Source of the DNA: Candidatus Muiribacterium halophilum
Lineage (GTDB): Bacteria; Muiribacteriota; Muiribacteriia; Muiribacteriales; Muiribacteriaceae
NCBI GenBank assembly: GCA_002869225.1
Contig: PKTG01000107.1
Span: 9,623 to 73,622 of the forward strand
Length of the DNA stretch: 64,000 nucleotides
Reading direction: 5' to 3'
A program made the translations under genes and the position numbers. Positions 2,788 to 64,000 of this stretch are shown one piece after another. The notes beneath the pieces are model-generated. The model was given only the letters and a program-made list of their open reading frames with translations, was not told the origin of the DNA and did no database searches. Within the stretch, counting starts at the first letter, position 1, and every line of letters begins with the position of its first letter.

Positions 2788-3805
2788 TATTCTAAGAGAA
2801 AATTTCTCTTCAGCTGTAAAGGTTAATATAGAAAGCCTTCAACAGATCATAGATAATGTCTTGAATTCTGACATGACAAATGGGCAGATTAGGCGTGTTT
2901 GTTCGAAAATATCCGTTGTAAAGGCTTTCTCTGCTTTTATCGGCGTGTCAGAGTATGCAGATGTGTTTCGTGGTATACAGAAGGTATGCGAAGACATTTA
3001 TAATAGAGATATGAATCATAAAAAAAGAGTGCTTTCAATCGTCAGAAAGTATATAAACTCAATAAAAGATCTTGAGGTTGACGGTAAGATATACGCTCAT
3101 CTTCCTGAACTGGAATATTTCATAGCTTTTCCTGATTCATTTATCTTTTTTGATATAGATCCTCTGGATATGATAATTAATGAGGATAATATCAAGATAC
3201 CAAGAGTAGATTGTATTCAGAATTTTATCTTTTTAAATAATCTTGAAAATAGTATTAAAAAAGAGGAGTTTTCGATCATAAAAGAATCAGCTAAACTTGT
3301 AAGAGATTCTTTTTATTTATCTTATTTTGATGATCTTAAAGATATAAAGAGTAAATTGGGAGAAAAATATACTGACATAATTTTTAATATACCGGATGTA
3401 AGTTTAAATCTCTTTAAGGATAATACTACTTTTATTGAAGATACAATAGAGTTCTTTATAAAAGGTTTCGGTTGTGAGGATAGGAAAATACATATAACTA
3501 TAGATAGAGAGGATGAGCTATCCTATTTCATAGAGTTTATCTGTGATAGTTCAAATGAAATGGTGTTGAAAAATTGTCAGGATAATGATCCGAAAATGCG
3601 CATCTTATATGATGATTGGAAAGAAATATATAAGATGATAAAGATAAGATCCGGAAATGAGAGCCTGAAAAAATTATTTCATCTTTTCTTATCTATTAAG
3701 ACTAGAATGAGAGACATCTCTTTTCAATTTGATAATAACAGTGCGAGACTAAAACTCATATTTCCTGACAACTTCTTTTTAAGTGAAGGTGTAATTGATG
3801 AATAA
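2780..3805 (+). CDS. hypothetical protein (341 aa) between the response regulator and the kinase, translationally coupled at both ends
   Basis: Long ORF whose start and stop overlap the neighbouring genes. I recognise no motif. Confidence 0.5.
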   Translation: MDNILRENFSSAVKVNIESLQQIIDNVLNSDMTNGQIRRVCSKISVVKAFSAFIGVSEYADVFRGIQKVCEDIYNRDMNHKKRVLSIVRKYINSIKDLEVDGKIYAHLPELEYFIAFPDSFIFFDIDPLDMIINEDNIKIPRVDCIQNFIFLNNLENSIKKEEFSIIKESAKLVRDSFYLSYFDDLKDIKSKLGEKYTDIIFNIPDVSLNLFKDNTTFIEDTIEFFIKGFGCEDRKIHITIDREDELSYFIEFICDSSNEMVLKNCQDNDPKMRILYDDWKEIYKMIKIRSGNESLKKLFHLFLSIKTRMRDISFQFDNNSARLKLIFPDNFFLSEGVIDE

Positions 3806-5567
3806 AAAAGAGATAATAACTATTATAAAAAGTTTAAAAAAAGATTTAAATCCGAAAAAGGATGTTCTTATTTCTGATCACTTTGAAGATAGTTCTTCTA
3901 AATATTCGATATTCTTACTTGTTGACGATGAAATAAAAAGACTCAGGTCGGAAAAAAAAGAAAATATTATATTTATTCGAAGCGAAGCTATATCTTTAGA
4001 TGACTCCAGAGCCTTGATCTATTTTATAGTGGAGAAATTTCTTAATAAAGGTATAGGTAGTATATTAGAACTTAAAGTAATAAATAATCTGGGAGTGGTA
4101 GTGGCACTTACTGGTAATCAGAGCAAGCTTATATATTCTGAGGAAGAGTTTTGTATTGGAGCATTTGATGATTGTAAGGAAAACTGTCTTTATAGAAAGG
4201 CAAGATATTCAAAAGAGGTCAAAGAAAAATTATCTCAACTGGGTGGTGATGTTTACTCTGTAAGTCTAAACTCCTTTAATATAAATGATAAAAGATTCTT
4301 TTTTGAGACAATAGAGAAGAAGATAGATCTAAAAATACTGGAAAAAGCAGTTTCAAATAAAACAGAGGAAGGGACTTTTTTTGCGCATTTTATCGATGTA
4401 CTTGAAGTGTTTTATATATCAAGATCTAAATCCGATTATATAGAGAAGATAGGAGAAAAACTATCATCTATTTTTAACAGTCCCTATTTTCTGCTTTCAG
4501 ATGGTGATTCTCTATATGAGTTCAGGGATAAACGACTGATTATTAAAAATGAAGCTAATTTACCTAAAAGATTTCAGAATGTGCAGTTTATAACTGATAT
4601 AAAAGATTAAAAATCTTTCTCGGATCTGGAAAGGTACGGACGATACATAATTTACTTTACCGCTTCCTCCTTAAATTCAGAACTAGCGCAAATATTGTTT
4701 GTTACGGATAGATTGGAAGAGGATATATTAAATCTAATAAACCTACTTTCGGGTCAGATATTCCTATGTCTTAATTATTTTGAGAAGGTTGAGAACGAAA
4801 GATTAGACAGTGTTAAACTCTTTCAAAGAGAGAAGATGGCTTCTTTAGGCCAGCTTTATCTTGGAATAACACATGAGATAAACAATCCCAATCCATTTAT
4901 ATCCGGTAACAGTTAACTTATAGAGATGAATATAGAAGATATTAGAGAGATGATAGCAAAAGGTGTTGATAAGAACATGCTATTAAAAAAGATGGATGAT
5001 ATAGATGAATCTCTTAAAGATATAATGAAAGGTTCTGAAAGAATAGATAGTATAGTGCAGAACCTTAAGCTTTTTTCGAGATTCGATTACTCCAATGTCA
5101 GGAAGAATGATATTAAGAGAATAATATCCGAAGCAATAAGAGTATCCCAGTATAGAGCTAAAGATAAAGATCTTTTTGAACTTATATCAAGATCTGGAGA
5201 ATTTAATGTTAAAGTAAATCATGATGAGATGCTACAGGTGTTTGTGAATATTTTTCTGAATTCAATACAATCTATTGAAAAGAAAAAAGAAATGCTTGAA
5301 GGAAGTTTCTTTCAAGGCAGAATACAGGTCGAGATAGAAATATTTGATAAAGAGATATGTATTAAAGTCGAGGATAACGGTGCTGGAATGGATAAGATAA
5401 TGGCTTCCAAGGTGTTTGACCCGTTTTTTACCACAAAGGGAAATGACGGTACCGGTCTTGGTATGAACATAGTCTATAATATTATTGCAAAATATTCAGG
5501 AAGGATAAAAGTTGAGACCGAGCTTGATAGTTTTTTCAGAACTATCATTAATTTGCCGATAGCTTGA
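3795..5567 (+). pseudogene. cytoplasmic sensor histidine kinase; three same-frame segments joined across two in-frame TAA (4608-4610, 4914-4916)
   Basis: ORFs 3795-4610, 4695-4916 and 4926-5567 are all in frame 0, and the 28 codons 4611-4694 are also open. H-box ITHEINNP lies just before the second TAA. HATPase motifs EDNGAGMD and GTGLGM follow it. Confidence 0.75.
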
Positions 5568-5646: not shown

Positions 5647-7242
5647 ATGAAAAAAATAGTTTTATTTTCACTTGTCATGGTTTTTCTTTTAGTCAATTCG
5701 CAAGCAGCTGTGATCGGCAATGATCTGAAAGATATGCTTCAGAAAATCGATGAGCCGATCAGCGTAATAGTCAAGATGAAGGATGTCTCTGCACTTGTCT
5801 CAAACAGTTATGACATCGCGACTCTTAAACAGAATGCACAGATCTCTCAGAAAGATATAATGGATTTTCTTACCTATGAAAAAAACATTTCAGATGTGAA
5901 AAATCTTTGGGCTATGAGTGCTATATCAATAAAAGCTGATAAAAATCTTATTGAGACTATTGCGAAAAGAGATGATGTGGAAAAGATATTCCTTAATAAG
6001 GAATTTAAACTTTTTGATAATAATACTTATCGTGATTCATTGTTCAGGACAACTGATGGAGACGGATTTGTATATGGTCTTAAAAGTATGAACGTTGATA
6101 AAGTATGGAAGGATTTTGGTATCGATGGTACTGGTGTGATATCTGGTGTTGTGGATTCTGGTTTGACAAAAGACCTTTCAGTATTTGATGGCAAGTTATT
6201 AGCTGGTAAAAACTTTGCTGGTGACGAAAATGATTTTGCAGATAAAAACGGTCATGGTACACATGTATCTGGAACTGTATTGGGTTCATGGGTAAGTGAT
6301 GATCTTTATGAACTTAAATGGGGAATGTTCTGGTCAAAAGCCGGAACTTTTGAAGGTAATATCGGAGTAGCTCCTGGAGCTAAGTTTTACTTTGCAAAAT
6401 GTATGCAGGATGATGGAAAGATATCTTTTGATGATATTCTTGAAAGTATGCAGTGGCTTGTAGATCCTGACGGAGACCCTCAGACACATGATGGAGCGAG
6501 AGTGATAAATGCTTCTCTTGGTTCAGATGAGAGTGTCCCGGAACTTAGAGAACCTCTTGTCAATCTTCAGAAAACAGGCGTATTTCTATGTTTTGCTGCT
6601 GGAAATTCAGGTAAGATCTGTGGATCACCTGCTGACTTTCCAGAAATATTTGCAGTTGGTGCTGTTGATTCAAACGATAACAAAGCATACTTCTCGAGTA
6701 TTGGTCCGGTTAATTGGGATGGAAAAGAATATATTAAACCTGATGTATGTGCACCAGGTGTGAAAGTAATATCATACTATGGAAGTAAATTATCCTACCT
6801 TGATGGTACATCAATGGCATCACCTAACACTACAGGTGTTATAACTTTGATGTTTCAGGCTGATCCTACTCTTACTACTGATGAGATAAAAGAAATATTA
6901 AAAGAGACCGCTCTTGATCTTGGTGATGAAGGTCCTGATAATAAATATGGTTACGGTAGAGTAGATGCTTACGCTGCAATATCCAAAATAACTGGAGAAA
7001 ATAAGATCAAATCTCTTGTCTATAGATATCAGAAGGTAAAGGATGATCTAGTGATAAGTAGTGATATACTTGATGAAAGTCTGGCCTCTGAAAAGGCTTA
7101 TTTAAACAAAGTAAACAGAAAAGATTCTATGGTGGATGAGATAGTTTCCATGGTAGATGATTCAAAAGATTGTGAAAGACAACTTAGAGAACTGGTAGAA
7201 GAAGGAATAGATCTTTCAGAAATATTTGAAAAAATAAATTAA
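5647..7242 (+). CDS. secreted subtilisin-family (S8) serine peptidase
   Basis: Signal peptide. Asp/His/Ser triad motifs VVDSGL, HGTHVSGT, GTSMASP. Confidence 0.9.
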   Translation: MKKIVLFSLVMVFLLVNSQAAVIGNDLKDMLQKIDEPISVIVKMKDVSALVSNSYDIATLKQNAQISQKDIMDFLTYEKNISDVKNLWAMSAISIKADKNLIETIAKRDDVEKIFLNKEFKLFDNNTYRDSLFRTTDGDGFVYGLKSMNVDKVWKDFGIDGTGVISGVVDSGLTKDLSVFDGKLLAGKNFAGDENDFADKNGHGTHVSGTVLGSWVSDDLYELKWGMFWSKAGTFEGNIGVAPGAKFYFAKCMQDDGKISFDDILESMQWLVDPDGDPQTHDGARVINASLGSDESVPELREPLVNLQKTGVFLCFAAGNSGKICGSPADFPEIFAVGAVDSNDNKAYFSSIGPVNWDGKEYIKPDVCAPGVKVISYYGSKLSYLDGTSMASPNTTGVITLMFQADPTLTTDEIKEILKETALDLGDEGPDNKYGYGRVDAYAAISKITGENKIKSLVYRYQKVKDDLVISSDILDESLASEKAYLNKVNRKDSMVDEIVSMVDDSKDCERQLRELVEEGIDLSEIFEKIN

Positions 7243-11340: not shown

Positions 11341-12176
11341 GAAAAAAAGGTTTTACATTGACCGAGGTTACAATAGTAGTAGCTGTGCTTGGTGTTTTTA
11401 CACTGGTACTTTTTAATCTACTTGCCATAATAAACAGATCTTCAAGTGTTGTTGAGTGGAGAACAGAAACAAATATGCAGCTTACTGAAGCTTTTAAAAT
11501 ACTTTCAAGAGATCTTGAACAGGCTAACTATCCAACAATAATAACTCAGGATGGAGTGTATAGGAATCCTATATCCCTGGGTGCTGGTGAATATAGACAG
11601 GGTGATCCATTACCGGAAAGCATACTTAGAGTGCACAAAGGAAGTGGTGAGGTCATAACTCTTCCAACTGGAGTGGATGAGATCACCGTTATGATGTGGC
11701 AGATAAATACTCCTGAAGTCAATATCGTGGGAAGAGGACATGCAGCAGAGACTACAGTATGTATTTTAAAACTATATAAAGAGTTTCAGAATAGATTAAA
11801 TGTACTTACATATAAAGTGATTGCTCCAGCAAATTATGATTATCTTGTATATTCCAATTCGCGAAGAATAAAAAACAATACTGAGATACCAATTATAGAG
11901 AATGTAAAAAGTATCGAGGTATCATATGATAAAAAGTATAGTGATGAACAGATAAATGCTTTTAATGAGATAAAGACAAATCCTGGAAACTTCCTGCCAG
12001 AAGAAAATAAGGATTATTTTCATGAATGGATGAACCCAGGCGTGCTTGGAGTCAAAGTAATAGTTGAGCAATCCAGAAAAATGGGCGTCCTTATGAGGAA
12101 AAGAGAGTTCAGAGTAAATGGAGAATTCATTATAGATCCACTTAGTGTTATCATGGAAAGGGTAAATAATTTTTAA
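11331..12176 (+). CDS. prepilin-type N-terminal cleavage/methylation domain protein
   Basis: Canonical KKGFTLTEVTIVVAVLGV motif. Confidence 0.75.
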   Translation: MEIRKKGFTLTEVTIVVAVLGVFTLVLFNLLAIINRSSSVVEWRTETNMQLTEAFKILSRDLEQANYPTIITQDGVYRNPISLGAGEYRQGDPLPESILRVHKGSGEVITLPTGVDEITVMMWQINTPEVNIVGRGHAAETTVCILKLYKEFQNRLNVLTYKVIAPANYDYLVYSNSRRIKNNTEIPIIENVKSIEVSYDKKYSDEQINAFNEIKTNPGNFLPEENKDYFHEWMNPGVLGVKVIVEQSRKMGVLMRKREFRVNGEFIIDPLSVIMERVNNF

Positions 12177-13018
12177 TGGAAATAAACAAAAGGTATCTTG
12201 AAAGATTACTTGAAACCGCAATAGATGAGGATATAGCATTTTCAGGAGATATTACTTCTGAAAATATCTTTGAACGATCTCATATTTCAAAAGGTAGATT
12301 TATCTCAAAAGAAGAAGGAATATTCTGTGGAGAAGAAATACTAAGATACATATTTAAAAATAAAGTAAAAGATGGCGAGATAGAAATAAAAAAGAAAGAT
12401 GGAGAATATCTTCAAAAAGGTGATATCATTGCCAAAGTCAAAGGTAATACAAAAGATATTCTTTTATTTGAAAGAACATGTTTAAATATTATTTGCCATA
12501 TGTCTGGTATAGCCAACAAGACGATGAGATTAGTTAAAGCTTTGAATAGAGCTGATATAAGAGTGGTTGATACAAGGAAGACCCTTCAAGGATTAAGAGC
12601 ATTACAAAAATATGCTGTTAAGATTGGAGGAGGATACAATCACAGAAGCGGATTGTATGATGCTGTTATGATAAAAGAAAATCATATTAAAGCTGCTGGA
12701 TCAATAAAAGAAGCTGTATAGAAGGTTAGAAGGAACGTATCTCATGTGATAAAGATAGAAGTTGAGACAACTGATCTTAAGGAAGTTCATGAAGCGGTAG
12801 AAGCCGGAGCTGATATAATTATGCTTGATAATATGGAACATGAACAGATGAGTCAGGCCTGTATTATAATCAACAGAAGAGCATTGATTGAGATTAGTGG
12901 TAATATAAGTGATGATAATATAAAGGAAAGAGTAAAAGAACTTCCAGTGGATATTATATCAAGTGGAGCTTTGACACATTCTGTTAAGGTATTTGATATA
13001 TCTTTTTTATTAGATTGA
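12176..13018 (+). pseudogene. nadC: nicotinate-nucleotide pyrophosphorylase (quinolinate phosphoribosyltransferase) with one in-frame TAG (12719-12721)
   Basis: ORFs 12176-12721 and 12746-13018 share a frame. The combined 280 aa is the canonical NadC length. KENHIKAAGSIKEAV-stop-KVRR..IKIEVETTDL..AGADIIMLDNM spans the stop. Confidence 0.85.
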
Positions 13019-16620: not shown

Positions 16621-17616
16621 ATGAAAAGATTTTTTGTAATATACATTATTTTTATATTCATATTCATGGCAATAGCGGATTCTACCGTCCATGATATGTA
16701 TCAGACTGCAGAAGAATATTATAAAGAGGGAATGATATAAAATTCCATTTCTCTACTTTAAAAAGTCATTCTTCAGGACCCTACCTTTATTAGTGCTTAT
16801 TATCTTTTAGGTAAGATTTACAAAGAGATAAATGAGTACGATAAGGCTATGTCATATTTTGAAAAGTGTATTGAGTTAAGACAGGATCTTAGAAATCGCG
16901 AAAAATCACTTGAAGAGAGTGGAATACCAAAGGTCAAGGTAGAGATGAGTGATGTTCTTAAAAAGATTGGAGAAGCTGAAGAGATACTCAGTCAGGGTAT
17001 AAGATTTGTAGAGGAAGGTGATTTTCTGTCTGCTGAGAACAGTTTTAAATATGCGATAGATCTAAACCCTAATGTTGCAGAATATTATTTTAGATTAGCG
17101 GATGTGTATCTTGATAGACAACTCGATGATATGGCTATAAGTACTTTAAAAAAAGGTCTGAGAATAGATACAAAAAATACTGACAGATATATACTACTTG
17201 CATCTTTATATTCAAAAAGCGGAGATGACAGGAAAGCTGTTCATCTTCTAAAGACAGCAGCTACTGATCATTTTAACGATAATCTTAAATTTAGAGATCT
17301 TATAAAGAGGTACTCTGCCAATATTATGGATAGAAGGGATTATACTGTAATAAGAAGAGATGGTAGAGAAGTTATAATAAATGCAGGGTTTAGAGATGGT
17401 ATAAAAAGAGGTATGGAATTCAGGACTCATCTGACTGTTTATAGGGGAGGCACTCCTGTGAAAGATCTAAATACAGGTGAGATACTTGGACAGACTGAAA
17501 GAAAGGTCATAGGAGAGTTGCTAATAACTAAGGTCGAAGAAAAACTCACTTATGGTCAGATAACTATTGAAAAAGAAGATAAGATTAGGATAGGGGATTT
17601 TATTTCAATTGAGTAA
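16621..17616 (+). pseudogene. TPR-repeat protein with N-terminal membrane anchor; two in-frame TAA (16738-16740, 16759-16761)
   Basis: ATG 16621 is in the same frame as ORF 16849-17616. MKRFFVIYIIFIFIFMAIA anchor. The first TPR unit reads YYKEGMI-stop-NSISLL-stop-KVILQDP..AYYLLGKIY and continues into the called ORF. Confidence 0.65.
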
Positions 17617-18055
17617 GCAAACTGATCTTAATATAAAAAATAAAAAAGCGTTTCATGAATATATAATTCTCGATAGATATGAAGCTGGTATAGCCTTAAA
17701 AGGTCCTGAAATCAAATCTGTCAGGCAGCATAATGTTAATTTTAGAGACAGCCATGTCAGAATACAGGGAAATGATGTCTTTTTAATAAATCTTCATATA
17801 GCAAGGTATAAAAACTCGGGATATTCGCAGATAGACCCTTCAAGAAACAGAAGACTTCTTTTAAATAAACGAGAGATTAGAAAGCTAAGTATTAGAGTTA
17901 TAGAAAGAGGCTTGACAATAGTTCCGTTAAGGTTGTATTTTAAGAATGGTCTTCTTAAAGTTGAGATAGGTCTTGCAAAAGGTAAGAAGATACATGATAA
18001 AAGAGAGACAATAAAAAAGAAGGAACTTGTTAGAGAATGGCAAAGAAAGCAATAA
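17609..18055 (+). CDS. smpB: SsrA-binding protein
   Basis: KNKKAFHEYIILDRYEAGIALKGPEIKSVR and a basic C-terminal tail. Confidence 0.9.
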   Translation: MSKQTDLNIKNKKAFHEYIILDRYEAGIALKGPEIKSVRQHNVNFRDSHVRIQGNDVFLINLHIARYKNSGYSQIDPSRNRRLLLNKREIRKLSIRVIERGLTIVPLRLYFKNGLLKVEIGLAKGKKIHDKRETIKKKELVREWQRKQ

Positions 18056-19590
18056 TACTTATATATATATTTACCTTTATGATCTTTTCCTTCTCAATAA
18101 ATAGTATATCAGTTCAGGTAAACGATATTACTTTTAAGGGAAATATTGACGGGGATATAGTATACCTTCCACTTACCGATGTATGTAAAGAATTCGATAT
18201 AAAGTTTGGTTTTTTTCCTGACACAAATATCATAGCTATCAACTTTCAGAATAAGATGATGAGTACCGTCGTGGATCAGAAAGAACTTATAGTAAATAAT
18301 GAGATAAGTGAACTTGAAAATCCACCAATTCTTATCAATTCCGAAGTCTATATGCCTATTGAGTTCTTCTCAAAATATCTGGAGTTGGATATATCATGGA
18401 AACCTGAAGAGATCTCAAAGAGTTCTGTTATAAGTGAACTTGTATTCAGGGAAAGTCCAGATGTTCTTGAAATATTTATTAAAGCCGATAAATCTTTTTC
18501 AAAGAACGAATATTTTGTGATACAGGATAAAAGAGATCTTATAATAAGTTTTCCTAATACTAAGATCGATTTAGAAGGTTTTGAATATCCTCATGATTAT
18601 ATTGAAGATGTAAATTATTTGAACGAAAAGCAGGAGACTGCTCAACTAACTATCAGATTTAAAAACAATCTTGACATTCAGTTGGGTCCTTCTGTAAAGC
18701 CAGCTGGGATGTATATTAGAGTAAATATATCTGATGTTCAGAAAACGCTTCCAGAAAATCGTGATGTATTGGATACTTCTGAGATCATTTCCTATAGAGA
18801 GCCAGGTTCTATTGAAGTATCTGCTTCAGAGATTCCCCTGATCTCAACGACTGAAGTTGCATCAGTGATCAGTTTAGACAGTCAGGAGACATATGAGGTA
18901 GAGGATTCATATATAGAAGAAGTTCCAGATATTGAACTTCAGCAATATACTTTTGTTGAGGAAACCTCTGAAAATATACTTGAGAATAAAGTCATCGTAA
19001 TCGATCCTGGCCATGGTGGTTCGGATTATGGTATTACCAAATTCGGTATATATGAAAAAGATATCGTACTTTCGATAGGAAGAAAACTTTTTGATAAGTT
19101 GTCTGAAGGGGATGCGTCAGTATTTCTGACAAGAAAGGGAAACGAGAATCTTACAGATGAAAAAAGGTCATATGTGGCAAATAGTAATAGGGCACAATTG
19201 TTTTTATCCTTGCATCTTGCTTTTAGCAGAGATGAAAAGATATCAGGATTTTCAATCTATTATTCTCCACAGTCTGAAAATGATCTAAAAGATAAACAGG
19301 ATTCGATGGAAGAACTAAAAAATATAAAAAGATATGATGATAGTATTAAATTTTAAAGACTCGTTAGCAGACACTTCGTGGACGATCTTGGTTTTATAGA
19401 TAGAAATATATTGCAGGCACCTATATCTGTTTTAAGAGATGTAAACTGTCCTTCTATATTACTTGAACTAAATCATTTATCAAATATGGAAATAGCACAG
19501 CTTTTAAAGGAAGATGATATACAGGATAAAATAGCCGATACTTTATATAAGGCTATTGAATCATATTTCATGAGAAAGAGAGCAAGATGA
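18037..19590 (+). pseudogene. N-acetylmuramoyl-L-alanine amidase (AmiC-like, AMIN plus Amidase_3) with one in-frame TAA (19354-19356)
   Basis: ORFs 18037-19356 and 19378-19590 share a frame. VIVIDPGHGGSDYG and ANSNRAQLFLSLHL lie before the stop. APISVLRDVNCPSILLELNHLSN lies after it. Confidence 0.8.
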
Positions 19591-20311: not shown

Positions 20312-20980
20312 ATGTACAAAGAAAACCCTGCATTTAATATCAAGGACTGTGCTCTTGTTGCTATAGCTACAGGTAAGAAAGCACATAATCTTAGAGAATT
20401 AAAGGATATCATTTCAACTATAGACGAGGGAAGTGTCTATTATCATTTTTGGGGAATGCTTCTTAAACCAAGATTTTTAAATAGGGAATATAACAATGAG
20501 TTTGCTATGTGGGTTAAAAGATCATTACATGATTCAGTTCTTGCAGAACGACTGGCAGTAATAGATCCTACTGATTATGATACATTAGAGGAACTTAGAA
20601 CTGAAGTTATTGATACAATAGAGGAAAGACTTGATGAGAATGAGTGGATAAACTTTGTTAAGCCTCATAGGAGATTTCATTTTATCCGTTCACATATTGT
20701 TGTGTTTGATACCCATACAACAATAGAAAGTCCTGAACAGCTTGTGGATATAATACCAAATATGTCAACTGGATCAATTTTTTATCATTTTATAGATGCA
20801 AGAGGAAGAGGTCATCAGAATGAGGATGATTTCAGACAGTGGCTTTCAGGTTTTGGAGAGGATCTAAAACCGCTTTGTGATAAGATAGCCGGACTAGATC
20901 CTTATTTTGTCTCTCCTCATACATTAAGAGATCAACTGGATGAGATCTTTACCGAATTTTTCAGAGGGGAGGTCAAATAA
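20312..20980 (+). CDS. conserved hypothetical protein coupled to treT
   Basis: GGGAGG RBS. One-nucleotide stop/start overlap with treT. No motif I can name with certainty. Confidence 0.5.
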   Translation: MYKENPAFNIKDCALVAIATGKKAHNLRELKDIISTIDEGSVYYHFWGMLLKPRFLNREYNNEFAMWVKRSLHDSVLAERLAVIDPTDYDTLEELRTEVIDTIEERLDENEWINFVKPHRRFHFIRSHIVVFDTHTTIESPEQLVDIIPNMSTGSIFYHFIDARGRGHQNEDDFRQWLSGFGEDLKPLCDKIAGLDPYFVSPHTLRDQLDEIFTEFFRGEVK

Positions 20981-22221
20981 TGAAAAAATTAAATCTATAT
21001 AGAGATATTGTTGGAGAGGATATAATCAATCAGCTAAAACAACTTGCTGAACCTCTCAAAGGAATAAAAGTCGTACATGTCAACTCAACAAAATTAGGCG
21101 GAGGTGTTGCTGAGATCCTTCATAAACTCCTTCCACTTAAAGAAGAGCTTGGGATAAAAGCTTCATGGGAAGTTGTTACAGGTGAATCCGAGTTTTATAA
21201 TTGTACAAAGAATTTTCATAATGGTCTTCAGGGAAATGCCGTTCCGGTCGATCAGAGACTCTTAAGAATATATGAACAGACAAACGCAGAAAACGCTGAC
21301 AGATTAAGAGAAAAATTAGCAGATGCTGATATTGTCTTTATACATGACCCGCAGCCTGCTATGCTTCTTCATTATATTCCTGAAAGAAAAGGAAAATGGT
21401 TATGGAGATGTCATATTGATGCAAGCAGACCTTTTAGACCGATTTGGAAATATCTTAGATCAAAAGTAGAGGGGTATGATGCAAGTATTTTCTCACTTGC
21501 AGATTTTGCTCAGCATCTTCCAAATACACAGTATCTTATACTTCCAAGTATAGATCCTCTTAGTGAAAAGAACATAGAGCTTGAAGAAAAAGAAATAGAT
21601 TCTATATGTGAAAAGTATAATATAGATCGTGAAAGACCAATGATGTCACAGATATCAAGGTTTGATCGTTTTAAAGATCCAATCGGTGTTATAAAAGCAT
21701 TTAAGCTGGCAAAAAAATTCACACCAGGACTTCAACTGGTACTGGCAGGTGGTGGAGCTACTGACGATCCTGAAGGTGAAGCAGTACTGAACGAGGTAAG
21801 AGCTGCTGCAGATGGTGATCCGGATGTAAACATTCTTCTATTGCCACCTGATGCTCATAGGATAATAAATGCGATTCAAAGAGCTTCTGATATTGTCCTC
21901 CAAAAATCTGTAAAAGAAGGGTTTGGACTTACAGTTACAGAAGGAATGTGGAAGGGTAAACCTCTTATTGGTGGTGATACAGGTGGAATTAGACTACAAG
22001 TAATAAATCATCATACTGGATTTCTAGTAAATTCTCCTGAAGGAGCAGCACTTAGAATAAGATATCTTTTCAATCATCGTGATAAGATGATTGAAATTGG
22101 AAATAATGCAAGAGAATTTGTTAGAGAGAATTTTCTTATTACAAGACATCTTAGAGAGTATCTTACTCTTATGCTTGCAATGTTACATTATCAGGATAAG
22201 GGTAGAATAGAGCTTAGTTGA
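20980..22221 (+). CDS. treT: trehalose glycosyltransferring synthase (TreT-type GT4)
   Basis: Long collinear similarity to TreT as I recall it: VHVNSTKLGGGVAEILH, TKNFHNGLQGN, WLWRCHID, PSIDPLSEKN, DDPEG, EGFGLTVTEGMWKGKP. Confidence 0.85.
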   Translation: MKKLNLYRDIVGEDIINQLKQLAEPLKGIKVVHVNSTKLGGGVAEILHKLLPLKEELGIKASWEVVTGESEFYNCTKNFHNGLQGNAVPVDQRLLRIYEQTNAENADRLREKLADADIVFIHDPQPAMLLHYIPERKGKWLWRCHIDASRPFRPIWKYLRSKVEGYDASIFSLADFAQHLPNTQYLILPSIDPLSEKNIELEEKEIDSICEKYNIDRERPMMSQISRFDRFKDPIGVIKAFKLAKKFTPGLQLVLAGGGATDDPEGEAVLNEVRAAADGDPDVNILLLPPDAHRIINAIQRASDIVLQKSVKEGFGLTVTEGMWKGKPLIGGDTGGIRLQVINHHTGFLVNSPEGAALRIRYLFNHRDKMIEIGNNAREFVRENFLITRHLREYLTLMLAMLHYQDKGRIELS

Positions 22222-22994
22222 TGTTCTTTTTTTGTGATGAAGAACAAATAAAAAATAATATACTTAGATCAAAAGAAAAGCAGAAGGTGTATTTCTTTGA
22301 TTATGATGGTACTTTATCACCGTTTGTCAAAGAAAGGCATAAAGCTTTTATGTATAAAGAGCTTATACCTTTTCTAAATAAACTTATTAGAAAAAATCAG
22401 GGGAAGGTATTCATCATAACAGGAAGAAGTATCGATTCAATATTACCACTACTTGATGATATTTATCCTATCCCTGAAATATGGGGAAGCCACGGTAACG
22501 AAAGGTATATTGATGGCAAATTGGAAAGATTGACTACTTCAAATGAAGATGTCCTTAAAAAATTATACAGTTTTATTATGGAAAAAGGGCTTGAGAATCA
22601 TTGTGAGAGGAAAGTCATATCTGTAACTCTTCATAAAAGAGGGCTTACTAAATCAGATATTCAATATATCGATTCTGTTAAAGATATTATCAAAAGAAGA
22701 TTTCCAGAAATTGATGTAAATAATTTTGATGGAGGATATGAATTTCTTATTGATAATAAAAATAAAGGCGATGCGGTTAGGGAAATATTGGATAGTTTTA
22801 AAGAAGACGTATTTCCTGTTTATTTTGGAGATGACCTTACAGATGAAGATGCTTTTAAAGAGATCAGAGATAAGGGACTGGGTGTTCTTGTAAGAAAAGA
22901 TAAAAGAGAAACTAATGCTCATGTGTGGGTTACCCCCCCCCATGGTATAGTTGAGATGTTTAAGGAGGTCTTATGTCCGAAGGAAGACTTATAA
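22218..22994 (+). CDS. otsB: trehalose-6-phosphate phosphatase (HAD family)
   Basis: FFDYDGTL motif I, ITGRS, and GDDLTDEDAF motif IV. Confidence 0.85.
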   Translation: MMFFFCDEEQIKNNILRSKEKQKVYFFDYDGTLSPFVKERHKAFMYKELIPFLNKLIRKNQGKVFIITGRSIDSILPLLDDIYPIPEIWGSHGNERYIDGKLERLTTSNEDVLKKLYSFIMEKGLENHCERKVISVTLHKRGLTKSDIQYIDSVKDIIKRRFPEIDVNNFDGGYEFLIDNKNKGDAVREILDSFKEDVFPVYFGDDLTDEDAFKEIRDKGLGVLVRKDKRETNAHVWVTPPHGIVEMFKEVLCPKEDL

Positions 22995-24409
22995 TAGCTT
23001 CTAACAGATTACCTATAGTCATTAAAAAAGAAAATGAAAAAGATTTTTCAATGACTCCTGGAAAATGAGGACTTGTTACAGCAATGGCTCCTGTCTTAAG
23101 AGACAGAGGTGGCATCTGGCTCGGATGGCCTGGAATAACTGATGAGGATAATATTAGTGATAAAAAGTTAAAAGAACTTATGGAAAAAGGTATAAAGGAT
23201 AGTGGTTATGATCTGGAACCCATAATCTTTTCTCATGAAGAAGCTGAAAAATATTATGAAGGTTTTTCAAATGAGATAATTTGGCCATTATTTCATGATC
23301 TTCCATCTCTTTGTAATTTCAAAGAGGAATACTGGAATATATATAAGGATGTAAACGAAAGATTTGCCAGTAAATTGACTGAAAAAGCTAAACCCGAGGA
23401 TTTTATATGGGTACATGATTATCATCTGATAAATGTTGCGACAAGATTAAGAAAAAGATCGCTGACAAATAAGATAGGATTTTTTCTGCATATTCCTTTT
23501 CCTCCGCTTGATGTCTTTTTAAAATTACCTTGGAGAAGGGAGATACTTCAGAGCCTTTTAGATTATGACCTGATAGGATTTCAGACACAAAGAGATAAAA
23601 GAAACTTTCTTCAATGTGTTCGTAGAGTGCTTAGATTTAGAGTTCAGGCAAGAGGAACAAAAAACATGGTCTATATAAAAAATCATAACAGAAAGGTCAG
23701 TGTAGCAGCTTTCCCTATTAGTATAGATTATGATAGTTTTGCAGAAGGTGCAGAGTCTGAAAACGTAGCAAAAAGAGCATGGTTTCTGCATGAAAACCTT
23801 CCAAATAGAACTCTGATTCTCGGGATAGATAGATTGGATTATACTAAAGGGATACCTTTTAAATTAAAAGCTTTTAAAAGAGCACTTGAAAAATATCCTG
23901 AACTACATAAAAATATTTCACTGGTTCAGATACTGGTACCTTCAAGAGTGCATATACCTAAATATAGGGAATTAAAGGAGAATATCGAAAAGCTTGTTGG
24001 AGAGATAAACGGAAAATTCACTGAACTTGGTTGGGTACCTGTATATTATATATTTAGATCGATGACAAGAGAAGAACTTTTAGCTTATTACCGGACTTCA
24101 GAGATAGCTTTTGTAACTCCGCTAAAAGATGGAATGAATCTGGTGGTAAAGGAGTTTTGTGCAAGTAATATTGAGGAGACTGGAGTTGTCATACTTTCCG
24201 AGTTTGCTGGTGCTGCTGCACAACTCGGTGAAGATTCTATCCTAGTTAATCCGTATGATGTAGAAAGAACAGCCGATGCTATATACAATGCTTTTACCAG
24301 TGATTATACATATAGAAAAAGAAGGATGAGAAAATTAAGACGATCTATTAAAAAATATGATATCTTCTGGTGGGTAAATGAATTTTTGGAATATGGAAAA
24401 GAAGAATAG
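22973..24409 (+). pseudogene. otsA: alpha,alpha-trehalose-phosphate synthase (GT20) with one in-frame TGA (23066-23068)
   Basis: ATG 22973 (GGAGG RBS) is in the same frame as ORF 23084-24409. MSEGRLIIASNRLP..TPGK-stop-GLVTAMAPVLRDRGGIWLGWPG matches the N-terminal GT20 signature. The total of 478 aa is canonical. Confidence 0.85.
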
Positions 24410-27525: not shown

Positions 27526-28629
27526 ATGATAGCATATGGAGTTGATGAAGTACTGGAAAATCGAAAACATCTAATTAAGGGTGTTCCGATCATTTTAATA
27601 ACCCATTACTATATAAAGGATTCAAATAAGGAGTCTGTTGCTGAGTTGTTTTATCAGGATCCGGAGATTAATCTTTCAAAGATAGTTTGTCCTAAATTTG
27701 GCTTTTTTCTTGATTCTAATACGACTGAAGATTTTGAAGGAATACCAGTTGAGTTTTTTAATATAGAGGATTTTAAAAAATCTCTTAAAAATATCCGCAC
27801 AGTTGTATTTGATCTTCAGGATACAGGAGTTAAGAACTCTCCTATACTTATCATGCTATTTGATATAATGAAAATATTAAATGATGTTGATGTAAACTTT
27901 TTGGTCCTTGATAGACCCAATCCTTTAAACAGTATTTCCTATGCAGGTATTATAGGACCTCTTGACGAGAAAAGACTGCCTCTCAGACATGGTATGACTA
28001 TTGGTGAACTTGCGAGTTATTTTAAATCACAGTTCTTTATAAGTACAAGGTTAAACGTAATTAAGATGATAAATTACGATAGGGAAGAGACTATATACGA
28101 TATAGAAGCTGGCGATAATCCATATTTGCCCGGTATAAGAAACAGAGATAGTCTTTGCCTATATTCTTTTTTACATCTTTTCACTTCAATGAATATCTCT
28201 GTAGGGCTTTGAAGTGATGTTGAATTTCTTGTGTTTGGTGCTCCATGGATCGATCCTGATATAGTATTTGATCAGATCATAATGATGGGTTTTGATGGAT
28301 TTTCTATGGAGACCTGTTCATTTACTCCAAGAGTCGGAATCTATTCTTCCACTGAATGTCACGGTATAAGGTTTAGGATAAATGATCTTTCTATGTTTGA
28401 TCCTATAGAACTCTTCTTAAATATAACAGAGATCTTATACTCATCATTTGGTGAGATAGAATTTCTTATGGATGAAGATGGGATTTATTTAATTGATTCT
28501 TTTTTTTCTGATGAGAGGATCAGAATAACAATAGAGAGATATATTCCAGCAACAAATGCTTATTATAAAGCGATGTCTACAATGGAGAGTTTTATTCCGG
28601 CAAGGCAAGAGGTACTTTTATATTCATGA
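27526..28629 (+). pseudogene. DUF1343 / NamZ-like exo-N-acetylmuramidase with one in-frame TGA (28210-28212)
   Basis: ORFs 27526-28212 and 28231-28629 share a frame. FDLQDTGV and VLDRPNPLN lie before the stop. NISVGL-stop-SDVEFLVFGAPWI spans it. Confidence 0.8.
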
Positions 28630-42990: not shown

Positions 42991-43851
42991 ATGGAAGTTT
43001 CTGTAGTAGTACCAGTATATAACGAACAGCATATGATTAAAGAGACTATTGACACTATAAAAGAATCCTTCAAAGGTTCAGAAATAAGATATGAGATAAT
43101 AGCTGTAGAGGATGGAAGCTCAGATGATACCTGGGAAGTCCTTTCAGCAATCGAAGACATAATAATCATTAGAAATAAAAAGAACTCAGGTTATGGTTAT
43201 TCAATAAAAAAAGGCATGAAGGTCGCAAAATATAAAAATATATTTATAACAGATGCTGACGGTACTTATCCAAATGAAAGAATGCCTGAATTTGTTCGTT
43301 ATTTTCACGATAATAATCTTGATATGCTTGTTGGAAGAAGGGATAGAAAAAACATTCCTCTTATAAGAAGACCACCTAAAGCTTTTTTAAGAAAATTTGC
43401 CTCATATATCTCGGGATTTGATATTCCAGATCTTAACTCAGGATTTAGGATGTTCAGGAAGGATTATGCTATAGCTTTTTCAAAAATGCTTCCAGATGGT
43501 TTTTCTTTGACATCCACTATAACATTATCCTTTTTTTCTGAGAAACTGGATATTGATTATGTACCTATTAAATATGGTAAACGTGAGGGGAAATCAAAGA
43601 TTCGTCCTATAAAAGATACAATGGCTTTCTTTCATCTAATATGGAAGACTGTATTTTATTTCAATCCTTTGAAGATATTCCTCCCATTATCTATACTTCT
43701 TTTCCTATCAGCTTTGGGAATATTCTCTTATTCATTTTTTAAGCTTGAAAAAGTAATGGATATAACAACGATAGTCCTACTTCTTACATCGGTACAGATA
43801 TTTTGCATAGGACTTGTAGCAGATCTTATAGTAAAAAGAGGAAATATATGA
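42991..43851 (+). CDS. family 2 glycosyltransferase (polyprenyl-phosphate sugar transferase-like) with C-terminal TM helices
   Basis: VVVPVYNE, AVEDGSSD, and DAD motif (ITDADG). GGAGGA RBS before ATG 42991. Confidence 0.8.
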   Translation: MEVSVVVPVYNEQHMIKETIDTIKESFKGSEIRYEIIAVEDGSSDDTWEVLSAIEDIIIIRNKKNSGYGYSIKKGMKVAKYKNIFITDADGTYPNERMPEFVRYFHDNNLDMLVGRRDRKNIPLIRRPPKAFLRKFASYISGFDIPDLNSGFRMFRKDYAIAFSKMLPDGFSLTSTITLSFFSEKLDIDYVPIKYGKREGKSKIRPIKDTMAFFHLIWKTVFYFNPLKIFLPLSILLFLSALGIFSYSFFKLEKVMDITTIVLLLTSVQIFCIGLVADLIVKRGNI

Positions 43852-45269
43852 AAGTACTTCTAGTAAATCAACCTGATACAGAGGTAATACTTGCTAATAA
43901 TCCGGAGATACTTGAAGAGGAAAGAGGATATAACCCTCCACTTGGAATACTATATGTAGCCGGTGCTTTAAAGCAGGCTGGAATAGATGTGGAAGTTCTT
44001 GATGCGCAGGTTGAAAGATTGGATTATGAGCAGCTTGAAAATAGAATAAGATAAAACAAACCAGATGCAGTTGGTATGACTCTAATGACATTTACTATAT
44101 TTGATGTCATAAAGACAGCAAAAGTCGTTAGAAAGATCGACAAGAATATAAAAATAGTCCTTGGTGGTCCACATGTATTTATTTATCCTGAAGAGACGCT
44201 TTTACAGGATTGGGTTGATATTATACAGATAGGCGAAGGAGAGAAAAATACTCCTGAGCTTTTTAAAAATATTAAAGATCTAGAAAAACTGAAAACAATT
44301 CATGGTGTAGGAATAAAAAATGAGGATGGTACATTTCAGATAAATCCTCCTGATGAAGCTATAAAGGATCTTGATGATCTTCCATTCCCGGCAAGAGAAC
44401 TTACACCTATTCAAAAATATTCATCTGTTATAGCTAAAAGAAATCCCATAACGACTATGTTTACAAGTAGAGGCTGTCCTTATAAATGTCTTTTCTGCAA
44501 TCGACCGCATCTTGGAAAGACATTCAGAGCCCGTAGTGCTGAGAATGTAATAGAAGAGTTTAAAGTGTGTTTTGATCTTGGAATAAGAGAGTTTTTAATA
44601 TACGATGATACGTTCACAATTAACCGAGAAAGGGTTGTTGATTTCTGTGAACTTATGAAAAAGACTGGACTTAACACAAAAGTTGGTTTTGATATTAGAG
44701 CAAGAGTCAATACAGTTGATAGAGAACTTCTTATAATGCTTAAAGAAGCTGGATGTGAAAGAATACATTACGGTGTAGAGTCTGGTACTGAAAAGATATT
44801 AAAAGTCCTTAGAAAAGGTATTACACTTAATCAGGCAAGAGAAGTCTTTAAGATAACCAAAGAGGTTGGGATATCAACACTTGCTTATTTTATGATAGGT
44901 TCTCCGACTGAGACAGAAGAAGATGTTGAGAAGACCATTGATTTTGCTCTTGAACTTGATCCTGATTTTGTACATGTTACAATAACTAGTCCATTTCCTG
45001 ATACTCCATTATATGCAATGGCGCTTGAAGAAAATGTAATAAAAAGGGATGTTTGGAGAGAGTTTGCTAAAAACCCAACAAAAGATTTTGTAGCACCGCA
45101 TTGGAATAGAGAACTTTCGGATGAGACTTTGCATAGACTGATTAAAAAAGCTTATAAAAAATTCTATATGAGACCTGGTTATATCATAAGAAGACTTCTT
45201 GACTTGAGATCATTTTCAGAGTTTATGAGAAAAGCCAAAGCAGGTATAAAGGTGTTCCTGTTAAAGTAA
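43848..45269 (+). pseudogene. B12-binding-domain radical SAM enzyme with one in-frame TAA (44052-44054)
   Basis: ATG 43848 and ORF 44076-45269 share a frame. ..ENRIR-stop-NKPDAVGMT..VLGGPH is the B12-binding fold. CPYKCLFC is the radical SAM cluster. Confidence 0.8.
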
Positions 45270-62060: not shown

Positions 62061-64000
62061 TAAAAGACATAAAAAACAGGTGGCTGGGGTCTTATTCTGT
62101 GGGGTTTCTATATTACTTATATTTGCTTTTTTTTCAAGTGATTCTGGTCTGTTTGGTAATCTTGTAGAACATCTGAAAAGATTTACTGGTACTGGAGTAT
62201 TACTTGCTGCCTATTTTTTCTGGATAACAGGAGTTTCTTTTTTTTATAAAGAAAAGGATGAGAATAAAGATTTTATGCTGGATCTACTTGCGTGGCTTCT
62301 ATTCACGTGTTGTTTTCTTATAATAACCGGTAAAATTGACAAAGGCGGGAATATAGGTTCTTTTGTATATCAATCTTTTGTATATGTTTTTGGAAATACA
62401 GGAACGATCATCTTAGCATATCTTTTGACTTTAGTTTCTCTGTTGATAACATTTAGGATCGATCTGGTAAAAGTCTTTTTAAAGATAAACACATATATCA
62501 AAAGTGAAAGATTAAAAGATGTATTAAAAAGATTTTTAGTAAAACAAAAAAATAAGGAAAACAGTTTAAAAGAAGAGAATATATCCACAGATAGTTTAGC
62601 TCAAACACATGTGTTTGATGTAAGAAAGACAATTGAAAAAGAAGAAGATGTCAATAATAAAAAATCGGAAACAAAATCAATTGAAGAGAATAAGGTTGAA
62701 GAAAAACCAAAACAGGAAAAATCAGAGAAAAATGAAAATAAATCCGATAAAAAAAGAAAAGAAAATATTAAAAAATCAAAAGATCAGGAAGATAACAGTT
62801 CAGATATTTCTGAAGAGATAAAAGAGAAAAAAGGATTAGAAAAGGAATCTGAGACAGAAGAGTTTGTGCTTCCACCGGTAGAACTATTGGATGATATAGA
62901 AGTTAAACAGACTGTTTCTGAGGATGAACTTCAAATAAAGGGAGAAAAACTCCTTAGTACATTGTCATCTTTTAAGATACAGGCAGAGATAATAGCAACC
63001 ACCATAGGACCATCAGTTACACGATTTGAACTCAGGTTGGCTGCGGGAATCAAAGTCTCTAAATTACTTGGTTTATCAAATGATATAGGTGTTACCCTTG
63101 CTACAAAAAATATTAGGATCGAAGCTCCTATACCAGGAAAATCAGCTATTGGTATTGAGATACCAAATGAAAATCCTATGTTAGTCCCATTCAGACAGGT
63201 AATAGATAAAGTCAAAAAATCCGATCATTCACTTAGAATGGGTCTAGGTAAGAATATAAACGGTAAAGAGGTAATATAGAATCTTGGAAAGATGCCGCAT
63301 CTTCTTATTGCAGGATCAACCGGTTCAGGTAAGAGTGTATGTGTAAATACCATCATAGCTTCAATGCTTTTTAATGCTTATCCCGATGATCTTAAGTTTA
63401 TTATGGTAGATCCTAAGATGGTTGAGTTAAGTGTATACAATGGTATACCACATCTTCTTATACCAGTTGTGACAGATCCAAAGAAAGCTGCCGCAGCTCT
63501 TGGTTGGGCAGTTGAAGAGATGGAAAGAAGATACTCTATGCTTGCTGATTATAAAGTGAAAAAACTGGAGGAGTTTAACGAAAAGATGCAGGGGCTAGCC
63601 GAAGAATATCCTTCGGATAAGGATAAATATGAAAAACTTCCTTATATTGTAATAATAATTGATGAACTTGCTGATCTTATGGTTGTTGCAAGAAATGAAG
63701 TCGAGGAATCTATCATGAGAATAGCTCAGAAGGCAAGAGCTGTTGGAATACATCTTATTATCGCAACTCAGAGACCTTCTGTAAATGTTATAACCGGTGT
63801 TATAAAAGCTAATCTGCCATCGAGAATTTCCTTCGCCGTACAATCTCAGACCGATTCAAGGACGATATTGGATCAGAAAGGTGCTGAGAGTCTTATTGGA
63901 AAAGGGGATATGCTTTTCTGGCCAATAGGTCAAAACGCACCGATGAGGATGCATGGTGCATTCGTCTCAAACGAAGAGGTTGAAAGACTTGTAAGTTACT
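62053..64000 (+). pseudogene. ftsK: DNA translocase FtsK (3' end outside the window) with one in-frame TAG (63277-63279)
   Basis: N-terminal TM helices, Lys/Glu-rich linker, alpha domain. ..[34 protein letters not shown] continues in the same frame through Walker A and the [11 protein letters not shown]alker B. Confidence 0.85.

Follow-up and report, generated by a model that had tools for sequence, protein, structure and literature searches.

The window, by which we mean the whole 64-kb stretch of DNA that was analysed, carries a four-gene trehalose cluster, the last gene of which is interrupted by an in-frame stop codon. The features of this region, all on the forward strand, are as follows:

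20312-20980, + strand: DUF5752 gene, recognized from gene calls and Pfam families on near-identical contigs
20980-22221, + strand: treT (PF21269)
22221-22994, + strand: otsB (PF02358), with a 22-nt overlap with the start of otsA
22973-24409, + strand: otsA, a GT20 trehalose-6-phosphate synthase gene of 478 codons, broken at codon 32; assigned from its translation, from PF00982 in the intact near-identical protein P0001, and from matches to OtsA entries of the PDB
23066-23068, + strand: the in-frame TGA, produced by G>T at 23066, which turns GGA, the codon of Gly32 at the head of the invariant GGL, into TGA; GGA in the contigs L001 and L002 described below
23084-24409, + strand: residual otsA ORF of 441 aa, starting at Met38 and devoid of the N-terminal strand and of the GGL loop

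The position of treT confirms the statement of an earlier note on this DNA that a TreT synthase lies in the same cluster as otsA; the DUF5752 gene adjoins two routes of trehalose synthesis. The order DUF5752-treT-otsB-otsA is kept in a relative known from other metagenomes (L011 1188-5482; L012 462-4756), whose OtsA is 71% identical to the one studied here and has GGC as the codon for Gly32. This 71% identical protein (P0002) is listed under the same species name, and was considered as a possible redundant second otsA paralogue; this idea was rejected, because P0002 was recovered from other samples, with the four genes of its cluster in the same order, which makes it the orthologue of a related organism. 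Towards the 3' end of otsB, at 22933-22941, nine C stand in a row and read Thr-Pro-Pro-His; this run has equal length in all the compared assemblies, and therefore gives no sign of slippage.

The otsA frame opens with the ATG at 22973, meets the TGA at 23066-23068, and beyond it stays open in that frame as far as the stop at 24409. Positions 23063-23074 of the window read AAA TGA GGA CTT, and the translation is MSEGRLIIASNRLPIVIKKENEKDFSMTPGK*GLVTAMAPVL..., with the asterisk at codon 32. The earlier note had called this gene a GT20 otsA, and the call is well founded: PF00982 is carried by each of the 120 best database homologues of the product, and among the solved OtsA/Tps1 structures 5jij is matched with E = 4.5e-105 over residues 5-473, that is, over nearly the full length. 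With the GT20 synthases of known structure (E. coli OtsA, 1gz5; 5jij; 6jbi) the gene shares both this full-length match and the N-terminal GGL loop, but the window copy stops at the first Gly of that loop: its frame is interrupted exactly where the family has an intact GGL, while the loop is whole in the near-identical contigs.

The same note had assigned the TGA to a Gly that is invariant in the GGL motif and had proposed an alignment of orthologues as a check. When the 120 best homologues were aligned with MAFFT, all 120 had Gly at the position of the TGA and again at the next one, and Leu at the one after that; the position is thus not variable. In 5jij (SPGGLVTAL) and in 6jbi (SSGGLVTGL) it corresponds to the leading G of GGL. 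By our own count along the E. coli sequence, this Gly is Gly21 of E. coli OtsA, adjoining Gly22. In the E. coli enzyme Gly22 is among the residues that bind UDP-glucose (PMC1769515), and the N-loop from Arg9 to Gly22 sits within the catalytic centre (PMC5685639).

In sequence, the residual 441-aa ORF does not differ from GenBank PLX16715.1, entered as [quoted passage not shown] (UniRef100_A0A2N5ZDH9). The protein names that were retrieved with this record give no hint of a truncation.

The state of the codon in other assemblies of the same population could be read directly. Four assemblies were placed on the window: JGI, covering all 64 kb; ERZ794998, covering 35 kb; ERZ794999, covering 26 kb; and Logan, covering 30 kb. 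Between 34410 and 46639 there is a single comparison contig. No indels were found anywhere between the window and these four assemblies. Two of the contigs, L001 (Logan SRR5894289) and L002 (JGI 3300007102, a contig of 83.9 kb), were compared with window positions 12973-34409: they are 99.9% identical to it with zero indels, and both have GGA at codon 32 of otsA, in the context AAA GGA GGA CTT. The earlier proposal that the TGA replaces a GGA, one base away, is borne out by these contigs; GGA, which the note called the common Gly codon, is one of the two common ones in the window (GGT 557, GGA 522, GGC 84, GGG 78).

Intact OtsA proteins of 478 aa (P0001 and P0123) are present in the JGI, Logan and ENA assemblies, and no product with the truncated sequence of the window is recorded in any of the three sets. 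Exact-pattern scans for the locus in collections of genome and metagenome contigs, run both with and without N at the variable base, gave no match. P0001, the best database match, differs from the read-through translation of the window only by Gly32 and by Gln in place of His88. We considered whether the Gly of P0001 could be the product of a gene caller using an alternative code; this was rejected because the DNA of L001 and L002 encodes GGA, and the Gly does not come from an alternative translation table.

The stop in otsA is one of ten in-frame stops in the window, the other nine of which correspond to Glu, Ser or Gly codons in the near-identical contigs:

4608-4610, + strand: GAA>TAA (G>T), codon 271 of the HisKA/HATPase kinase gene at 3798-5567
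4914-4916, + strand: GAA>TAA (G>T), codon 373 of the same kinase gene
12719-12721, + strand: GAG>TAG (G>T), codon 182 of the QRPTase (nadC-type) gene at 12176-13018
16738-16761, + strand: two GAA>TAA (G>T at 16738 and 16759), codons 40 and 47 of the TPR gene at 16621-17616
19354-19356, + strand: TCA>TAA (C>A at 19355), codon 440 of the Amidase_3 gene at 18037-19590
28210-28212, + strand: GGA>TGA (G>T), codon 229 of the NamZ gene at 27526-28629; the only other in-frame TGA
44052-44054, + strand: TCA>TAA (C>A at 44053), codon 69 of the radical-SAM gene at 43848-45269; this site is covered only by the JGI contig
63277-63279, + strand: TCG>TAG (C>A at 63278), codon 409 of 755 of ftsK, which runs from 62053 past the end of the window

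A full-length OtsA would still be made if the UGA at codon 32 were recoded, whether as Gly in the manner of genetic code 25, as selenocysteine, or through programmed read-through. Code 25, in which UGA stands for Gly, is the code of Gracilibacteria/Absconditabacteria. The case of otsA is similar in that the UGA falls exactly on an invariant Gly, one base from GGA, and the second in-frame TGA, at 28210, likewise stands in place of a GGA. The set of ten stops, however, speaks against this reading, since TGA accounts for just two of them: the other eight are TAA (six) or TAG (two), at Glu or Ser codons, so that no single codon reassignment covers all of them. Moreover, while under code 25 UGA does not serve as a terminator and occurs in frame at conserved Gly positions in many genes, here 24 of 59 window genes normally end in TGA, the in-frame TGAs number two, and the lineage is Muiribacteriota. 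The near-identical genomes use GGA at both TGA sites; contigs that are only 0.1% apart cannot differ in their genetic code, and recoding is therefore contradicted.

Selenocysteine would be expected to come with a SECIS hairpin 3' of the UGA and with Cys or Sec in the homologues. No SECIS-like fold was found 3' of the TGA (the segment 23060-23130 folds no better than its shuffles, z = 0.17), and the Gly of the homologue column is replaced by Cys or Sec in none of the 120 sequences. No Rfam family reached its gathering score anywhere in the window, and around the TGA site Rfam gave only noise; no tRNA genes, and so no tRNA-Gly with anticodon UCA, were found in the 64-kb window. On account of the TAA and TAG stops, of the many TGA terminators, and of the absence of a SECIS element and of a tRNA in the window, we cannot sustain the suggestion of the earlier note that decoding as Gly would mimic code 25 locally, and we regard recoding of any kind as hardly credible. 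As a side observation, smpB is present at 17609-18055, yet no tmRNA gene was found in the 64-kb window.

Altogether, 49 substitutions are private to the window with respect to the four assemblies, and 34 of them are G:C>T:A. All ten nonsense changes, which affect eight genes, fall in this class. At the sites that it covers, no other assembly has any of the 34 G:C>T:A alleles. In stretches with three or more overlapping sequences, the share of G:C>T:A among singletons is 28/36 for the window versus 0/12, 4/7, 0/1 and 1/5 for the other assemblies (5/25 in total; Fisher p = 1.7e-5). The four out of seven belong to the JGI assembly, which may thus be affected in the same way, though less severely. 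In a JGI contig beyond the end of the window (L005 20268-21014) a LuxE-family gene is split into a call of 147 aa and a second call; the same gene is a single one of 374 aa in L003 and L004.

The sequence context of the 34 changes is equally distinctive. On the strand that carries it, the mutated G has a purine as its 3' neighbour at 33 of the 34 sites, versus a background frequency of 0.59 (p = 4e-7); guanine is oxidised most readily when it stands 5' of a purine, and 8-oxoguanine (8-oxoG) pairs with A, giving G>T. Both marks of an 8-oxoG-type signature, an excess of G>T/C>A and a G 5' of a purine, are thus found in the window. In terms of trinucleotides, TGA>TTA makes up 13 of the 34 changes versus an expectation of 12.8%, while the CGG context, which corresponds to the CCG>CAG peak of Costello et al., makes up only 2 of the 34.

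Of the 31 coding G:C>T:A changes, 10 are nonsense, 16 are missense and 5 are synonymous; a neutral expectation weighted by context is 24% nonsense, 63% missense and 12.5% synonymous, and the observed split fits it (p = 0.20). Under a uniform model nonsense changes appeared to be specifically favoured (p = 0.005), but this excess disappears once the trinucleotide context is included, because the context alone accounts for it. The remaining private coding changes behave differently, with 9 synonymous versus 4 non-synonymous (Fisher p = 0.001 with respect to the G:C>T:A split), as expected of real strain variation under purifying selection, while the G:C>T:A burst fits a process that selection has not filtered.

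Neither are the changes evenly spread along the window. No private G:C>T:A is found between 46823 and 63277, a tract of 16.5 kb (P = 0.0017), while elsewhere there is about one per 1.4 kb; the clean tract could result from mosaic assembly, from coverage or from recombination. The other assemblies differ among themselves at 48 sites, and there the window mixes alleles in a way that no single other assembly does: for example, in the region 5647-7242, position 5959 has the allele of ERZ794999 and Logan, while positions 6238 and 6249 have the allele of ERZ794998. Some window proteins have no exact recorded match because of these mixed alleles, and look-ups of window proteins with private alleles were likewise empty. 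The mixture suggests a consensus drawn from several strains (a mosaic), or recombination.

From these data we infer that oxidised guanine was the cause of the changes, and that they originated in vitro or in the course of assembly rather than in a living lineage. The TGA in otsA is, in our judgment, quite probably a technical error in the deposited consensus, and part of an oxidised-guanine-type burst that is private to this assembly. Pairing of 8-oxoguanine with A would have given rise to the 34 G:C>T:A changes of the GenBank MAG of Candidatus Muiribacterium halophilum, and the errors would have entered the deposited assembly from damaged template DNA, or through a consensus that was of low complexity or a mosaic. 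The real otsA of the organism would then be intact, with its Gly-Gly-Leu. This UGA is decoded by nothing; were the sequence real, translation would simply stop.

Artefacts of the C>A/G>T type that stem from the oxidation of guanine during library preparation have been documented (Costello et al. 2013, PMC3616734). The window resembles them in the dominant class of change (34/49), in the position of the G 5' of a purine, where the C of the opposite strand comes after a pyrimidine, in the absence of the changes from independent assemblies, and in the lack of any biological filtering. There are also differences: the artefact of library oxidation has a low allele fraction, is specific for read orientation and occurs mainly in the CCG>CAG context (PMC3616734), whereas the changes described here are in the consensus of an assembly, and are dominated by TGA>TTA with CGG a minor component.

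It is also conceivable that the changes are genuine, as the outcome of a burst of G:C>T:A mutations in vivo, due to a defect in the repair of 8-oxoG (of the MutY/MutM type, whose genes lie outside the window) or to strong oxidants, with the loss of otsA being tolerated by virtue of TreT. Changes of G:C to T:A at a G before A are also the signature of unrepaired 8-oxoG in vivo, as in the spectra of MutY/MUTYH deficiency, so that the spectrum and the context count for this reading as well; as in the pseudogenes of such mutators, the stops arise from GAA, GAG, GGA, TCA and TCG. Reactive chlorine species, which occur in perchlorate-reducing enrichments, would point in the same direction: the MAG reportedly derives from the perchlorate-reducing enrichments of Barnum et al. 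2018. Other protein accessions of the PLX series are attributed to that work, again with perchlorate-reducing enrichments as the source. A mutator in vivo keeps a small probability because the changes have reached the consensus of an 84,284-bp contig and because no gene that is hit is clearly essential; treT and otsB are, in addition, intact in the window.

Several observations nonetheless make a burst in vivo unlikely. Nonsense changes are not depleted (10/31 versus the expected 24%), as they would be in a lineage of MutY/MutM-type mutators; the 16.5-kb tract is clean, unlike what a genome-wide mutator would leave; and the assemblies that co-occur in the same population have none of the 34 alleles at the covered sites, nor is a truncated OtsA recorded among the Logan, ENA and JGI products. 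The burden of broken genes points the same way. With 34 changes per 64 kb, 8 of 60 window genes are broken, about one in eight; the same rate over the genome would disrupt about 13% of all genes, hundreds of knock-outs, which we would consider incompatible with a living clone. The window alone does not prove lethality, because it is not clear for any of the eight broken genes that the cell needs it: in ftsK the N-terminal part precedes the stop, and nadC, otsA and namZ count as accessory. The earlier note had held that a true null allele of otsA would be tolerated thanks to TreT; an assembly error is likelier than an allele compensated in this way, because the burst to which the stop belongs shows no selection and is absent from the assemblies that cover it.

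A more specific version of the same idea, in which massive 8-oxoG mutagenesis struck part of a Muiribacterium population in an enrichment rich in oxidants (perchlorate/chlorite) and the MAG captured the result, seems to us distinctly improbable. If it were true, the truncations of otsA, namZ, nadC and ftsK would be real alleles from a hypermutator lineage in decay.

Technical error in the consensus thus being the reading that we favour, its main consequences concern the use of the genome. GCA_002869225.1 is the nomenclatural type genome of Muiribacterium halophilum (PMC10408702), and in 64 kb of it G>T changes truncate or split roughly one in eight genes. At least one of the shortened products, the 441-aa PLX16715.1, has been deposited as though it were normal. 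Surveys of gene content, of pseudogenes or of stop-codon recoding that are based on this assembly would be misled, and any of the nine further stops could be mistaken for a case of recoding or for a pseudogene. A check of the substitution spectrum is a cheap filter for findings of in-frame stops in MAGs. For the biology of the organism the finding has little importance, as it entails no recoding and no new mechanism, and the case is ordinary either way: its DUF5752-treT-otsB-otsA cluster is almost certainly an ordinary one.
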